A stretch of 64,000 nucleotides of DNA from Escherichia phage 232Ecol030PP. Made by a program: the position numbers and the translations under genes. Location of the stretch: the sequence record PP355090.1; one strand, written 5' to 3'. Below, piece by piece: positions 26,373 to 38,362 of this stretch (position 1 is the first letter of the stretch; each line of letters opens with the position of its first letter). The notes beneath the pieces were generated by a model, which saw only the letters and a list, made by a program, of their open reading frames with translations, ran no database searches and was not told the origin of the DNA.

Positions 26373-26585
26373 TCATTTTTGTCCTGTATTTACTTTATGC
26401 CGATGCACGGCCTTAACTTTATCAAGGTATTTTTCAAAATTTCGCAATCTAGTATAGTCTGCCGGAGATTGGTTGAGTGATACTTCTCGACGCAAAGCTG
26501 AAATGATATTTCCAACTTCCCTACGAATTTCATCTAATTGAAGCACAGTAAGATTGCGAAGTTGCTTTTCAGTTAATTGTAGCAT
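26373..26585 (-). CDS. hypothetical protein
   Basis: 70-aa ORF, ATG start. Confidence 0.5.
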
Positions 26586-26627
26586 ATATACCCCTTTAGT
26601 TAGATAAACCTATTTATAACTTTTGCA

Positions 26628-27209
26628 CTAACCGAGCTTTTTAGTTAATTCATTCCAATGTTTTCTACACAAAGAAACATAAATTTCATCACCAATACAG
26701 ATTTGATTACCTTCTTTAACTGGTGTTCCATCTTCCATTAATCGAGCTGTCATAATAGCTTTTTTACCACAATGACAAACTGCCTTTAGTTCAATAAGTT
26801 TATCTGCAATCGCCAAAAGTTCTTTAGAACCTTCAAATAATTTTCCAGCGAAATCAGTCCTTAGCCCATAAGCCATAACAGGAACATTATATGTATCAAC
26901 AATTCGACTTAATTGATGCACCTGTTCAGTTTTTAAAAACTGAGCTTCATCTACAAATACACAATGAATATCTTTTTGTGCTTCAGCCCATTTATAGAAC
27001 TCAAAAATATCCATATCATCAGTAATAATATTCGCTTCCTGCTTAATTCCAATGCGAGAAACGACTTCACAGACAGAATCGCGAGTATCAATAGCAGGCT
27101 TAAGAACTAATACACCCATTCCGCGTTCTTTATAATTATGTGCAGCAGTCAAAAGAGAAGCAGATTTTCCAGCATTCATTGCTGCGTAAGTAAAAATTAA
27201 ACTCGCCAT
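26628..27209 (-). CDS. tk: thymidine kinase
   Basis: 193 aa with P-loop (AAMNAGKS) and C-terminal Cys zinc site; recognised as T4 Tk. Confidence 0.9.
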   Translation of the reverse strand: MASLIFTYAAMNAGKSASLLTAAHNYKERGMGVLVLKPAIDTRDSVCEVVSRIGIKQEANIITDDMDIFEFYKWAEAQKDIHCVFVDEAQFLKTEQVHQLSRIVDTYNVPVMAYGLRTDFAGKLFEGSKELLAIADKLIELKAVCHCGKKAIMTARLMEDGTPVKEGNQICIGDEIYVSLCRKHWNELTKKLG

Positions 27210-27218
27210 ATCACCTTC

Positions 27219-27404
27219 TTAAAGCATATTCACATAAGCTATTAATTCGTTTTCTTTCTTATCAAACCGATCAGCAAATTCTTCTTGCTGTTCGGGAGAT
27301 AGCGGGCCGTATTCATCATAAAAGGTGTTTGCTTCTGTATGCTCATCTAGAAGTTCATGGATAAGCTCAAACAATTTATCTTTTTGTTCTTTACTCAGAC
27401 TCAT
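27219..27404 (-). CDS. hypothetical protein
   Basis: 61-aa acidic ORF. Confidence 0.5.
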   Translation of the reverse strand: MSLSKEQKDKLFELIHELLDEHTEANTFYDEYGPLSPEQQEEFADRFDKKENELIAYVNML

Positions 27405-27574
27405 ATATTAATTTCCAGGAGTTTTAAAATAATTCGCTTTTGCTTAAATATTTCCATAGTTAAATGACCAGTATCTTTTTGACCGATTCCAATGGCAAAA
27501 CCTTTATTAACAGCGAGTTCAATTAAATTATCAAGCTCACGTAACACTTCATACTGTAACTCAAAACTATTCAT
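27401..27574 (-). CDS. hypothetical small protein (57 aa)
   Basis: ATG at 27574 overlapping upstream stop (ATGA) and stop overlapping downstream ATG; below track size cut-off. Confidence 0.35.
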   Translation of the reverse strand: MNSFELQYEVLRELDNLIELAVNKGFAIGIGQKDTGHLTMEIFKQKRIILKLLEINI

Positions 27575-27783
27575 TTCGGTTTACCTTCTTTAACGAAATC
27601 TGGATAAGGATAAAATCCCGAATAAAATCCTTCACCTTTATGATTGATGCATCCTTTATTAGAACAATAGCACCAATAATCGAAATCACAAGCCATTTCA
27701 TCGTTGCATAAAGCAAAAACAACTGGCCATTTACACTTTTCACAATGGGCATTTTTAAGAATACTAGTTTGGCTCATAACCAT
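27571..27783 (-). CDS. cysteine-rich small protein (possible zinc-binding)
   Basis: 70 aa with 8 Cys (CEKCKW...CNDEMACDFDYWCYCSNKGC). Confidence 0.5.
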   Translation of the reverse strand: MVMSQTSILKNAHCEKCKWPVVFALCNDEMACDFDYWCYCSNKGCINHKGEGFYSGFYPYPDFVKEGKPK

Positions 27784-27986
27784 GTAACCTTTAAGCAGTA
27801 TTCTTCTACATGCTGTTTACGACCTTTCTTATCAATAAAGGTATATTCAACGAATGTTCCAATGTAGTCTTTATCTACATCATGCGGACTATTAATTGGA
27901 CATTTAGTACGGCAAATGCGTTCCCATTGACGAATAATTACTGCCTTATTCTTTGGGTCATATGGATGTGGATAATGTATATTCAT
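27774..27986 (-). CDS. hypothetical protein
   Basis: First ATG at 27986 (track start is TTG). Confidence 0.45.
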   Translation of the reverse strand: MNIHYPHPYDPKNKAVIIRQWERICRTKCPINSPHDVDKDYIGTFVEYTFIDKKGRKQHVEEYCLKVTWL

Positions 27987-28450
27987 AATAACGGTTCCCA
28001 ATCAACAATCACAATTTCTAATTTAGAGGAATATGTATCTAAAATCCCCTCAATAATATCCCAGTTCCCTTTACCTATGCCTGCACCAATCCTAGGCATA
28101 TAGATTGTAGGTTTAATCAGTTTATTTTCACCAAACTCATTTAATTCTAACATACAATTCATTAAAGCGGAATACTCAAAATTTGGCCCTGGTTGAAATT
28201 GAGTATAAAGGTTGAAGCAATACGCTTTATGAGTCCTAAAGTATTTTTCATAGACTGAGTAAGAACCGAGTTTAGTTACATCACCCCATTCAGTCTGTAA
28301 TTTATCAGCTTCCAAAATTTTAGGGAAAGCTTTGGTTAATTGACCCGCTACGCCTGAACCCATAGTATGAAAACAATTGCATCCATGCGCAATATTTTTA
28401 CCTTCAGCGAAAAGGGCGACAATATCGCCCTTGATATATTTTACAATCAT
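27983..28450 (-). CDS. macro-domain-like protein (putative ADP-ribose binding or hydrolase)
   Basis: Motifs GDIVALFAEGKNIAHGCNCFHTMGSGVAGQL and PRIGAGIGKG resemble macro-domain signature segments. Confidence 0.5.
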   Translation of the reverse strand: MIVKYIKGDIVALFAEGKNIAHGCNCFHTMGSGVAGQLTKAFPKILEADKLQTEWGDVTKLGSYSVYEKYFRTHKAYCFNLYTQFQPGPNFEYSALMNCMLELNEFGENKLIKPTIYMPRIGAGIGKGNWDIIEGILDTYSSKLEIVIVDWEPLL

Positions 28451-28788
28451 CTAGTACTCAATCCTCGATTATAAGAATCTACCAAACGGTCAACCATTGA
28501 ATGACAAGCGGCTTTATCTTTCTCCTCCGCAACTGAACATTCTAAGGTATTCCACTTTTTAGCATATCGTTTTAATAATGTATCGTTTTTGTATCTGCTT
28601 GATTTATCTCTTTCTCCGTCTTTATATGCATATATTAATTTCTGCGCAAATTCAGCTTGGCATGCTTTATTTTTCCCACAATAATCTGCCGCAGTGCGAT
28701 TTACATATTCTCTAATTTCAGTATATGATGTATCTGCTAACGCAGAAAATGAAATTAATCCTATACATAAAACCAAAATTTTAGTCAT
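28447..28788 (-). CDS. secreted or periplasmic protein
   Basis: 113 aa with signal peptide MTKILVLCIGLISFSALA. Confidence 0.55.
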   Translation of the reverse strand: MTKILVLCIGLISFSALADTSYTEIREYVNRTAADYCGKNKACQAEFAQKLIYAYKDGERDKSSRYKNDTLLKRYAKKWNTLECSVAEEKDKAACHSMVDRLVDSYNRGLSTR

Positions 28789-29326
28789 TTACTATTTCCA
28801 AAAGTTTATTATTTTTAAGGTAATTAGCCTTTTCTAGGACTTCAGAAGCATATTTAGAACCTGCTTTAACATTCCATCCCGAATTATAAGATGATATTGC
28901 TTTTCTTATATCGCCCTTATGTATATTTAACCAATAAGAAAGTTCAATGTACGCCCAGGAAGCTGAATTGGATCGTTTATTCAACATTCTTTTTATTTCA
29001 GCATCGGTCATATTATAACCAAGTTCCTTAACTCTTGCTCGCATAGTAGGCAAATAATTTTGGAACATTCCATAAGCGTGATGCTTTGGTTTAGATTTTA
29101 AATTAACTCCGCCAGAGCTTTCTTGCCATAAAATAGCAGCCATTATATGACCTAATCCGCTCTTGTGGATATTTTTGTGTGTTTTATATTTTCCATCCTT
29201 AGAAAATTGTTCCCCGAATTGATACGCGTAACGCATGTTATCGAGTTGGACATTACTGAAAGTATGCTCGGAGCTATGTGCCATCATTGAAATGGCCAAT
29301 AGACCAGCGAGTAGTGCTTTTCTCAT
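28781..29326 (-). CDS. periplasmic lytic transglycosylase-like protein
   Basis: Signal peptide plus SLT-like motifs (WQESSG, GMFQ, SYNSGW). Confidence 0.55.
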   Translation of the reverse strand: MRKALLAGLLAISMMAHSSEHTFSNVQLDNMRYAYQFGEQFSKDGKYKTHKNIHKSGLGHIMAAILWQESSGGVNLKSKPKHHAYGMFQNYLPTMRARVKELGYNMTDAEIKRMLNKRSNSASWAYIELSYWLNIHKGDIRKAISSYNSGWNVKAGSKYASEVLEKANYLKNNKLLEIVND

Positions 29327-29333
29327 GCTTACC

Positions 29334-29795
29334 TCATTGAGTTTTAATTACTGCTTTAGAAGCCTTTCCTGGTAAACGACGACTGTTGATAATTGCCATC
29401 CTGCATTGAAGTGACGGGTTTTTGAACTTCTCATTAGGCTTACAAACCGTAAATCCAAGCCAAAGATTTCCATCTGTGATTTCTAAACGTCCAGGACGAT
29501 ATTCAACCCCATCAATAAAATCCTCGTCAATGTCAGGACGCGGAGGCATACTCAGGAATTCATTAACTTCTAAAACATGGTCTTTTATTTTATGGAATAA
29601 TTCAAAAACATATGTCTCATCAATCTCCCGTTGAATTGCACGATCAAGAAGATGTTGAGAATATTTTAGATGAAACGATGAGACTCCTGCTGCTTTTGAT
29701 GCCTCACGAATCTCATTGTTAATTTGACGAAACTCCGACTCAAAATGACGACGAAGCTTATTTCGACGGATAAAAACTTCTGTATTGATAGTCAT
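29334..29795 (-). CDS. regB: endoribonuclease RegB
   Basis: 153 aa MTINTEVFIRRNKLRRHFESEF... recognised as T4 RegB; early promoter upstream. Confidence 0.85.
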   Translation of the reverse strand: MTINTEVFIRRNKLRRHFESEFRQINNEIREASKAAGVSSFHLKYSQHLLDRAIQREIDETYVFELFHKIKDHVLEVNEFLSMPPRPDIDEDFIDGVEYRPGRLEITDGNLWLGFTVCKPNEKFKNPSLQCRMAIINSRRLPGKASKAVIKTQ

Positions 29796-29817
29796 GTTGT
29801 TCTCCTCTTAACTGATA

Positions 29818-29852
29818 GAAAAATTATACCACAGTCAAGAGGAAAAGTAAAC
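29818..29852 (-). promoter_or_regulatory. T4-type early promoter (regB)
   Basis: Minus strand GTTTAC (plus 29847-29852), spacer, TATAAT. Confidence 0.55.
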
Positions 29853-29854
29853 AG

Positions 29855-30133
29855 TTATTCTTTAAATCTAATCAATTTATTCATAGACTTTGAAACTTCT
29901 GCACGAACCTCATGTAGATTTTTGAGCTGTTCAAGACGCTGCGTATAGTAAGCAATTTCATCTTCTTCGAGACAGTCCTGTGAATCTTCTTTAAGATACC
30001 GTGCATAGTCCTGGAAAGCGTTACGGACTACTTCCTGGAAGTCATCAAGACTTTGAATTTTCTTAGGAGCAGCAGACACACGACGAGGGGCAGTATAATA
30101 CTCATAACCAAACCCTGCGCTTAATTGAGCCAT
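29855..30133 (-). CDS. hypothetical protein (vs.3 position)
   Basis: ATG at 30133 with GAGGAAAAA RBS (track start is GTG). Confidence 0.45.
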
Positions 30134-30399
30134 TAGTATTTTTCCTCTGGTTGGAACACAGCACGACAAGCCCACATACTGGCTTCTTTGAGTTTCGTTT
30201 TAGCAATAGCTAACTGATCGAGGCTTTCAGCATAATTCTTCGCGAGTTCAAAGTCTTCGCAATTATCTAGTGCTTCCCAGAATTCATCATATAAAGCATC
30301 AAAGATAAGTCCTAAACGAACTTCAGCGTCTTTAATAGCATTTACTTTACCGATTTTTTCGTCGGTATGTGGCTTATAACCTTTAATATCTTCAATCAT
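30133..30399 (-). CDS. hypothetical protein at the vs.4 position (candidate Acb2-like cyclic-oligonucleotide sponge)
   Basis: ATG at 30399 with GAGGAAG RBS (track start is TTG); fourth ORF downstream... position after regB matching T4 vs.4. Confidence 0.45.
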
Positions 30400-30613
30400 A
30401 TTTGACTTCCTCACCAGTACATAAATCGTATTCAACTAAACGAATAGGTTCATGAATGCCATATCCCTGAACAGAAATTTCTGTCGTAGGATAAATTCCA
30501 CTAATATCACCCATATTCCACGCTTCATTAAATTGCTGTTCGCCTGAATTACTAAACCACTCGGCGAAAGCATTTAGCACATCTTCAGAACCTTCAATAA
30601 TTATCTTTGCCAT
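30392..30613 (-). CDS. hypothetical protein
   Basis: 73-aa ORF, ATG start. Confidence 0.5.
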   Translation of the reverse strand: MAKIIIEGSEDVLNAFAEWFSNSGEQQFNEAWNMGDISGIYPTTEISVQGYGIHEPIRLVEYDLCTGEEVKYD

Positions 30614-37534: not shown

Positions 37535-37610
37535 TGGTCGAGGCAGTAGGGATCGAACCTACGACCCAGGACTTAGAAGGTCCTTGCTCTTCCTTCTGAG
37601 CTATGCCTCG
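37535..37610 (-). tRNA. tRNA-Arg (anticodon TCT)
   Basis: Hand-folded cloverleaf: acceptor CGAGGCA/TGCCTCG, anticodon loop CTTCTAA, T-loop TTCGATC, encoded CCA. Confidence 0.8.
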
Positions 37611-37614
37611 GATT

Positions 37615-37689
37615 TGGCGGACGTGATAGGATTCGAACCTATAACCAATCGCTTAACAGGCGATCGCTCTGCCATTGAGCTACACATCC
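37615..37689 (-). tRNA. tRNA-Asn (anticodon GTT)
   Basis: Acceptor GGATGTG/CACGTCC (one G-U), anticodon stem ATCGC/GCGAT, loop CTGTTAA, T-loop TTCGAAT, CCA. Confidence 0.7.
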
Positions 37690-37693
37690 AAAT

Positions 37694-37780
37694 TGGTGGG
37701 GAGTGATGGAGTCGAACCACCCGAGTCGCAATGACAATGGATTTACAGTCCACACCGCTACCTCTACGGGATAACTCCCC
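37694..37780 (-). tRNA. tRNA-Tyr (anticodon GTA), class II with long variable arm
   Basis: Acceptor GGGGAGT/ACTCCCC, anticodon loop CTGTAAA, variable arm TGTCATTGCGACTCG, T-loop TTCGACT, CCA; architecture like bacterial tRNA-Tyr. Confidence 0.6.
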
Positions 37781-37789
37781 AAATTAATT

Positions 37790-37864
37790 TGGTGGCCCTG
37801 GGTGGAATTGAACCACCATCTGGCGATTATGAGTCGCTTGCTTGAACCTTCCAGCTACAGGGCC
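37790..37864 (-). tRNA. tRNA-Ile (anticodon CAT, lysidine-type; could be scored as Met)
   Basis: Acceptor GGCCCTG/CAGGGCC, anticodon loop CTCATAA, T-loop TTCAATT, CCA. Confidence 0.7.
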
Positions 37865-37865
37865 T

Positions 37866-37941
37866 TGGTGCTGATTGACGGAATCGAACCGCCGACCTTC
37901 TCATTACAAGTGAGTTGCTCTACCTACTGAGCTAAATCAGC
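37866..37941 (-). tRNA. tRNA-Thr (anticodon TGT)
   Basis: Acceptor GCTGATT/AATCAGC, anticodon loop CTTGTAA, T-loop TTCGATT, CCA. Confidence 0.8.
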
Positions 37942-37946
37942 AAAAC

Positions 37947-38036
37947 TGGCGGAGGCGATAGGATTTGAACCTATGAGTCGCCGGAGCGACTGCCGGTTTT
38001 CAAGACCGGTGCATTAAACCACTCTGCCACGCCTCC
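37947..38036 (-). tRNA. tRNA-Ser (anticodon TGA), class II
   Basis: Acceptor GGAGGCG/CGCCTCC, anticodon loop CTTGAAA, long variable arm, T-loop TTCAAAT, CCA. Confidence 0.8.
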
Positions 38037-38038
38037 AG

Positions 38039-38112
38039 TCTCCGTGGCAGGATTTGAACCTACGACATTCTGCTCCCAAAGCAGACGCTCTACCAAACTG
38101 AGCTACACGGAG
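38039..38112 (-). tRNA. tRNA-Pro (anticodon TGG)
   Basis: Acceptor CTCCGTG/CACGGAG, anticodon loop TTTGGGA, T-loop TTCAAAT; CCA not encoded. Confidence 0.75.
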
Positions 38113-38122
38113 TAAATTAAAT

Positions 38123-38196
<74 letters not shown>

Positions 38197-38201
38197 AAAT
38201 T

Positions 38202-38288
38202 TGGTGCGAGAAGTGGGACTCGAACCCACAAGGAAATCATTCCGCAGCATTTTAAGTGCTGTGCCTTTACCAATTTGGCCATTCTCGC
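38202..38288 (-). tRNA. tRNA-Leu (anticodon TAA), class II
   Basis: Acceptor GCGAGAA/TTCTCGC, anticodon loop CTTAAAA, long variable arm, T-loop TTCGAGT, CCA. Confidence 0.8.
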
Positions 38289-38289
38289 G

Positions 38290-38362
38290 CTGGGAATAAA
38301 GGACTCGAACCTTTGCATCCTGGAATCAAAATCCAGTGCCTTACCAACTTGGCTAATTCCCA
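38290..38362 (-). tRNA. tRNA-Gln (anticodon TTG)
   Basis: Acceptor TGGGAAT/ATTCCCA, anticodon loop TTTTGAT, T-loop TTCGAGT; CCA not encoded. Confidence 0.75.

Follow-up and report, generated by a model that had tools for sequence, protein, structure and literature searches.

Gene content and order between vs and tk

The window analyzed here is a stretch of 64,000 nucleotides from Escherichia phage 232Ecol030PP (sequence record PP355090.1), a T4-like phage belonging to Tequatrovirus. Positions 27150-28850 of this window have matches in 728 phage records, with 100% identity to Yersinia phage PYPS2T and to several further Tequatrovirus genomes. Every gene considered here is carried by the minus strand, the order of transcription being regB, vs.1, vs, tk.4, tk.3, three small ORFs and tk. 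Five short genes are thus located between vs and tk. The features are the following.

26628..27209, minus strand: tk, thymidine kinase, at the downstream end of the cluster (PF00265, 1.7e-60; 191/193 residues identical to T4 Tk)
27210..27772, no strand: cassette unlike the T4 interval (blastn comparison of the window with T4)
27219..27404, minus strand: gene A, 61-aa Tk.2-like protein of family DUF7438 (PF24219, 6.6e-19; 33/61 residues identical to T4 Tk.2)
27401..27574, minus strand: ORF B, 57 aa, putative (phrog_3452, 1.6e-33)
27571..27777, minus strand: gene C, 68-aa Cys-rich protein, putative single-zinc-site protein (PF23895 Phage_zn_bind, 2.6e-29)
27774..27986, minus strand: tk.3, 70-aa protein of family DUF7202 (PF23832, 2.1e-38; 70/70 residues identical to T4 Tk.3)
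27983..28450, minus strand: tk.4/adfM, 155-aa protein assigned by sequence and model as a stand-alone macrodomain of the ALC1-like class (155/155 residues identical to T4 Tk.4)
28447..28788, minus strand: vs, upstream neighbour of tk.4 (112/115 residues identical to T4 Vs)
29823..29851, minus strand: sigma-70-like (T4-early-like) site upstream of regB, the best promoter candidate (consensus match only)

A 4-nt ATGA overlap was found at each of the vs/tk.4, tk.4/tk.3, tk.3/C, C/B and B/A junctions, and a 9-nt spacer, GAAGGTGAT, separates gene A from tk downstream. An earlier sequence-only reading of this DNA had described five short genes linked by ATGA-type overlaps, which is borne out by these five junctions. 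The span that it gave for them, 27401-28450, encloses four of the five genes, gene A (27219-27404) lying outside. In a rough gene call, ATGA was present at 19 of the 90 minus-strand junctions of the window; the run of five is the longest, every other run comprising at most two. The run is therefore a real local feature, though of a kind that is common in T4-type genomes.

For Tk.3, a 75-aa ORF with a TTG start had been listed, an artefact that the longest-ORF rule produces. Translation truly begins at the ATG at 27986, yielding the 70 residues shared with T4. Residues H4, H7 and C29 of this protein are invariant. Searches of the four small proteins (A, B, C and Tk.3) against PADLOC and NCBIfam gave no match. 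For ORF B, Pfam was also searched and gave none, and a T4 counterpart was not found.

The tk-tk.3 interval is replaced relative to T4

By blastn, the window is 97.6-98% identical to T4 up to the start codon of tk (27209) and again from the stop of tk.3 (27773). Between these two points, 563 nt are replaced, and homology breaks exactly at the gene boundaries. In T4, the equivalent interval holds tk.2 and tk.1, both encoding DUF7438 proteins, whereas in the present phage it holds the Cys-rich gene, ORF B and a single DUF7438 gene, gene A, whose DNA is 68.5% identical to T4 tk.2 (blastn). In other Straboviridae, the vs-tk interval is occupied by differing mixes of small genes, including members of a second family that Pfam names "phage zinc binding". 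On these nucleotide comparisons, the tk-tk.3 interval is a cassette that has been swapped relative to T4.

The Cys-rich protein encoded in this cassette is absent from T4. The sequence-only reading placed its gene at 27571-27783, with 70 residues and eight cysteines. The ORF is present, with an in-frame ATG at 27783, but translation likely begins at the ATG at 27777 (68 aa), because the ATGA overlap is formed there and residue 3 of the 70-aa form is the first one covered by the Pfam model. The count is seven cysteines, together with two histidines. The protein matches PF23895 over its full length (101.5 bits for a cut-off of 27, E 2.6e-29), belongs to phrog_2306 and has homologues in 777 phage records (tblastn). 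In the homologues from Moonvirus, Krischvirus, Slopekvirus and an unclassified Klebsiella phage, C12-x2-C15 and C38-x4-C43-x2-H46 are kept, and the three remaining cysteines vary. This CxxC…CxxxxCxxH pattern fits a single zinc site built from two knuckles, and the protein probably binds zinc. The AlphaFold model, computed from an alignment of five sequences, reached a pLDDT of only 41.5 and was unusable, and a sequence search of the PDB gave no significant match, the best being the ZZ domain of p62 (sequestosome-1) at E 0.21; for these reasons, the description "zinc-ribbon-like" goes no further than plausible.

Transcription and coupling of the small genes

The sequence-only reading had also treated these genes as a mini-operon. 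The strongest promoter candidate in the vicinity (29851-29823, TTTACT-17-TATAAT with an extended TG, 10/12 matches) lies upstream of regB and is a possible start for a transcript that would run through vs.1, vs and tk.4 to tk. No terminator-like site was detected on the minus strand between this candidate and tk. Sigma-70 and terminator scans showed no enrichment over shuffled sequence, so that neither a promoter nor a terminator is claimed for the cluster itself. T4 middle (MotA-box) promoters, searched by regex on the minus strand of 26500-30500, were not found. Since a promoter or terminator belonging to the small genes was not found, their co-transcription with regB, vs.1, vs and tk.4 through tk is plausible.

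A functional module formed by the Cys-rich gene and the macrodomain gene was considered and rejected: T4 possesses tk.4 but not the Cys-rich gene, Moonvirus CF1 possesses the Cys-rich gene but not the macrodomain, and tk.4 alone was the DarTG2 hit in T4 (see below). With a swapped cassette, genes that occur independently of one another, and neither a promoter nor a terminator belonging to it, the stretch from vs to tk is not a functional unit, and the mini-operon could not be upheld as one. Given this independent occurrence, the ATGA links reflect compact packing together with a probable translational coupling of early genes that were shuffled independently.

Tk.4 is a macrodomain protein by sequence and predicted structure

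Tk.4 of the present phage is identical to its T4 counterpart over all 155 residues and occupies the same position, with vs upstream, tk.3 downstream and ATGA at both junctions. Against the Pfam Macro family (PF01661), it scored 27.7 bits (E 2.9e-6), above the curated gathering cut-off of 22 bits, with residues 22-132 aligned on model positions 2-113 of 118. The motifs GDIV…NIAHGCNCFHTMGSGVAGQL and PRIGAGIGKG, from which a macrodomain had been proposed on the letters of the DNA, are both present in the protein. The closest sequence relative in the PDB was Bt_1257 (2FG1, 1.3e-9), followed by yeast Poa1p (2.8e-6) and SCO6735 (5E3B, 3.3e-4), and more weakly by Thermus aquaticus DarG (5M31, 5.2e-4) and TARG1 (6e-4). 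With single sequences, the similarity between Tk.4 and DarG is weak (E 5e-4 to 6e-3).

An AlphaFold (AF2) model of Tk.4 built from 59 homologues reached a pLDDT of 95.5 and a pTM of 0.90. When this model was submitted to Foldseek, 129 PDB matches were obtained at E <= 0.001. The matches listed were macrodomains or engineered hydrolases, the top ones being all macrodomains; TARG1, Poa1p, Bt_1257 and DarG were the best (probability 1.00, TM 0.7-0.82). Thus, the macrodomain reading is supported by a Pfam score above the cut-off, by the predicted fold and by identity with T4 Tk.4/AdfM. The conserved Gly-rich loops MGSG and IGAGIGKG are present, which suggests that ADP-ribose could be bound.

Tk.4 is annotated in T4 and in many GenBank records as a phosphatase bearing an A1pp motif, and in others as a hypothetical protein; phrog_335, which it matches (1.3e-65), is likewise annotated "phosphatase". 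The proper name for 27983..28450 is adfM/tk.4, macrodomain anti-DarT2 factor, and neighbouring genes are misnamed in GenBank as well. For the window, the main value of the analysis is this annotation, in place of "phosphatase" or "hypothetical protein".

A glutamine occupies the position of the catalytic lysine

N25, the motif Y82-T83-Q84 and two G-rich loops, M30-G33 and I121-G128, make up the key residues of Tk.4. Q84, Y82, D49, G122 and G124 are invariant among the 258 sequences of the Tk.4 family that were aligned, and N25 is kept in 257 of them. The family is large, with 1,191 clusters at 50% identity and E <= 1e-30, and a homologue was found in 2,750 of 50,697 phage records, distributed over many myovirus groups.

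When the Tk.4 family was aligned with the DarG family by hhalign (probability 98.7%, E 2e-16), N25 fell on DarG N22, and Q84 on the catalytic lysine K80. The two proteins have the same fold (5M31, 5M3E and 5M3I, TM about 0.75-0.8), and both counteract the DarT2 toxin, but T. aquaticus DarG has K80 where Tk.4 has Q84. In addition, DarG possesses a C-terminal DarT-binding domain and is encoded next to darT, whereas Tk.4 lacks this domain and is flanked by vs and tk.3. DarG profiles match Tk.4 over the macrodomain part only (PADLOC 1.3e-9, NCBIfam 2.5e-7), that is, over model positions 2-146 of 329/338, and the NCBIfam score was 30.3 bits for a cut-off of 250. Without the lysine, the C-terminal domain and the adjacent darT, an assignment of Tk.4 as a DarG was rejected.

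SCO6735 and Bt_1257 are ALC1-like macrodomains of the Gln type, with hydrolase activity on thymidine-linked ADP-ribose. The alignment with SCO6735/Bt_1257 (E 8.4e-17) placed Q84 on SCO6735 Q85 and N25 on N27. The glutamine at the position of the catalytic lysine is therefore common to Tk.4 and to these proteins, as are the asparagine, a histidine (H22 in Tk.4, H24 in SCO6735) and the PRIGxG…GG…W loop. However, several differences separate them. The mobile loop of SCO6735/Bt_1257 is about five residues longer than that of DarG/TARG1, and Tk.4 lacks the extension, hhalign showing a deletion of 5-6 residues directly after Q84-P87. The lysines that position DNA in SCO6735, K34 and K89, are both missing in Tk.4: K34 aligns with S32, and K89 falls within the deleted loop. 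Conversely, D49, invariant in the Tk.4 family, is missing in SCO6735/Bt_1257. Tk.4 is phage-borne and the other two proteins are chromosomal. K127 of the GIGKG loop might compensate for the missing lysines.

TARG1/OARD1 (4J5R, 4J5S) and Poa1p (6LFQ, 6LFR) gave the top Foldseek matches (E 5e-10 to 2e-9, TM 0.7-0.8) and share with Tk.4 the His-x-x-Asn/Ser region and the Gly-rich loops. The catalytic dyad K84/D125 of TARG1 is missing in Tk.4, where Q84 and the Gly/Lys of the GIGKG loop are found instead, and the substrate of Poa1p is a small molecule. Tk.4 probably works like DarG or SCO6735, yet it is a member of neither group.

Tk.4 as an anti-DarTG2 factor

DarTG systems block phage replication by ADP-ribosylation of phage DNA. 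In T4, a mutant deleted of adfA and adfN stays resistant to DarTG2 (PMC11825919), from which a further factor was to be expected; adfN, the anti-DarTG1 gene of T4, is gene 30.3 (bioRxiv 10.1101/2025.11.20.689424). In a HIDEN-SEQ screen reported in the same preprint, a T4 transposon library was placed under DarTG2, and tk.4 was the sole significant hit. A clean tk.4 knockout rendered T4 sensitive to DarTG2, and adfM is the new name that the gene received. Enzymatic removal of ADP-ribose from DNA by AdfM was considered "likely" by the authors, their evidence being genetic (bioRxiv 10.1101/2025.11.20.689424). As the protein studied here is identical to that of T4, this result transfers directly, and Tk.4/AdfM of the present phage is predicted by orthology to confer resistance to DarTG2. 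It follows that the macrodomain finding is real yet already known. Knowing that a phage carries an eraser gene of this kind helps to anticipate its host range and how phage therapy will turn out.

The DarTG2 phenotype also bears on the legacy annotation. Tk.4 might be an ADP-ribose-1''-phosphate phosphatase or an O-acetyl-ADP-ribose deacetylase acting on a small molecule, as the "phosphatase / A1pp" label in T4 and in many GenBank records implies and as the presence of Poa1p among the closest solved relatives (E 2.8e-6, TM about 0.8) would allow. This is very unlikely, since the label derives from homology only, the window does not suggest any pathway that makes Appr-1''-p, and the only phenotype recorded is specific to DarTG2 (bioRxiv 10.1101/2025.11.20.689424).

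The sequence-only reading had instead connected the macrodomain with the ADP-ribosyltransferases of T4-like phages themselves. Such phages do encode Alt, ModA and ModB, and macrodomains can act as protein de-ADP-ribosylases, so that Tk.4 could reverse or tune the protein ADP-ribosylation of the phage. However, Alt and Mod modify arginine, whereas the activities characterised in the ALC1-like class concern Asp/Glu-linked and thymidine-linked ADP-ribose. In addition, when DarTG2 was absent, tk.4 was not reported to affect fitness (bioRxiv 10.1101/2025.11.20.689424). A role of this kind is hardly credible, and the evidence points rather to counter-defence against the DarT2 of the host.

Proposed mechanism

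The best overall explanation, to which we give a probability of roughly 0.78, is that Tk.4 acts as an orphan antitoxin-like macrodomain that opposes DarT2 by Gln-type de-ADP-ribosylation of DNA, the small genes downstream being independent of it, co-transcribed and ATGA-coupled. In this scheme, Tk.4 would be produced early in infection, while DarT2 of the host would ADP-ribosylate thymidines in single-stranded phage DNA. The macrodomain cleft would then bind the ADP-ribose carried by the DNA and the thymidine-ribose bond would be hydrolysed, restoring DNA that can be replicated. The four small genes would be shuffled early genes, each independent, that are expressed from the same transcript and coupled to tk.4 through ATGA. 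We infer that hydrolysis is carried out by Tk.4 itself.

For the chemistry, SCO6735 provides the model. This protein cleaves the thymidine-ADP-ribose that DarT forms on DNA; its Q85A and Q85E variants are dead and N27S is almost inactive, and a water-mediated mechanism was proposed in which the glutamine positions the distal ribose (PMC9411070). By analogy, Tk.4 probably uses the same glutamine mechanism: N25 would lock Q84, Q84 would position the distal ribose and a water molecule would act, a chemistry unlike that of the Lys-dependent DarG and TARG1. As K34, K89 and the longer loop are missing in Tk.4, the SCO6735 mechanism may not transfer exactly.

Protection without hydrolysis is conceivable, because the dead SCO6735 Q85A still inhibits DarT by binding. 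Tk.4 would in that case bind and inhibit DarT2, or shield the modified DNA, and catalysis would be unneeded. The same study found that the catalytically inactive DarG K80A and TARG1 K84A likewise inhibit DarT by interaction, SCO6735 doing so most strongly (PMC9411070), and the absence of the catalytic lysine from Tk.4 is in keeping with such a role. However, Tk.4 lacks the C-terminal DarT-binding domain of DarG, its match being confined to profile positions 2-146 of about 330. Moreover, N25 (257/258), Q84 and the Gly loops are kept in diverged homologues, a pattern more in keeping with an enzyme than with a binder specific for the toxin. We consider binding alone to be unlikely and retain Gln-type hydrolysis by Tk.4 as the preferred reading.

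A wider proposal, which we regard as doubtful, is that the Tk.4 family forms a third lineage of DNA de-ADP-ribosylating macrodomains, spread by phages and distinguished by glutamine in place of lysine, a short loop and the invariant Asp49. Its mechanism and substrates would differ from those of DarG and SCO6735 and might include the products of other DarT-like or RNA-targeting toxins, and the Cys-rich protein and/or Tk.3 would be further anti-defence or accessory factors.

The name AdfM is also borne by gp104 of PhiKZ, for which in vitro removal of DarT2-made ADP-ribose was shown (Cell Rep 2026, PMC13309987). Like T4 Tk.4, gp104 is a stand-alone phage macrodomain that counters DarTG2. However, gp104 belongs to a different subfamily, being a macrodomain close to the DarG2 type (match to 5M3I at 9.4e-25) in which the lysine of an FPTK motif is present; the single BLASTP match with Tk.4 was a local segment of 23 residues (E 0.005). 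Beyond the literature consulted, the alignments indicate that the active site with an invariant glutamine in place of lysine sets the T4-type AdfM apart from DarG and from the PhiKZ-type AdfM. With glutamine in the former and lysine in the latter, the two proteins of the same name probably use different chemistry.

Tk.4 and the two proteins named AdfM

Asp49 of the macrodomain protein Tk.4 was found to be invariant across the family (258/258 proteins). When other macrodomains were aligned to this position, an Asp was also found in Poa1p, whereas Bt_1257 carries a Tyr. In the literature of 2025-2026, the name AdfM covers two proteins from separate macrodomain subfamilies: PhiKZ gp104 is a DarG2-type macrodomain bearing a Lys, while T4 Tk.4 is of the Gln type.

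A terminator-like element was detected on the strand opposite to tk.4:

28412-28441, plus strand: GC-rich hairpin of 8 bp, then a T-rich tail: AAGGGCGACAATATCGCCCTT GATATATTTT

This element is antisense to the codons specifying roughly residues 4-13 of Tk.4. Since terminator-like sites were not enriched with respect to shuffled sequences (3 found, 2.0 ± 1.4 in the shuffles), the hairpin may be a chance occurrence. According to a 2026 preprint, the tk.4 transcript of phage T2 is contacted by the host sRNA ArcZ.

Exchange of the tk-tk.3 cassette

Comparison of the window against T4 by blastn revealed a cassette swap at 27210-27772, the breakpoints of which coincide exactly with gene boundaries, namely the start codon of tk and the stop codon of tk.3. 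Where T4 carries tk.1 and tk.2, the window contains a divergent tk.2-like gene, an ORF encoding 57 aa and a Cys-rich gene. The segment formed by the latter two was present in 585 phage records, and the T4 arrangement is thus one variant among several.

Neighboring genes and their annotation

Two genes flank tk.4:

27774-27986: Tk.3, DUF7202
28447-28788: vs, named 'valyl-tRNA synthetase modifier'

Three residues of Tk.3 (H4, H7, C29) are invariant, a fourth, C64, is kept in the full-length homologues, and this protein could be another small metal-binding protein. In Krischvirus TB34, the equivalent slot is occupied by PF23903, a second family designated 'phage zinc binding' in Pfam.

Despite its name, Vs carries a typical signal peptide of the Sec type at its N terminus (MTKILVLCIGLISFSALA|D). 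It comprises 113 residues in the window versus 115 in T4, owing to a 2-residue deletion within the signal peptide. The vs gene is reported to be required for T4 growth in minimal medium (HIDEN-SEQ preprint, bioRxiv 10.1101/2025.11.20.689424).

Several products seem to be misnamed in MH809535.1, a GenBank record identical to the window in this region. The 70-aa Tk.3 is labelled 'ABC transporter ATP-binding protein', Vs 'valyl-tRNA synthetase' and Vs.1 'endoribonuclease'. By Pfam, Vs.1 contains an SLT lytic-transglycosylase-like domain (1.4e-5).

Other features of the window

26611-26618, minus strand: T4-late-promoter-like TATAAATA
37538-38362, minus strand: cluster of ten Rfam tRNA matches

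The TATAAATA site directly follows the stop codon of tk and precedes the rI.1 homologue (26373-26585). Nine of the tRNA matches are strong (60-74 bits), and the tenth, at 37699-37778, is marginal (30.2 bits for a cut-off of 29).
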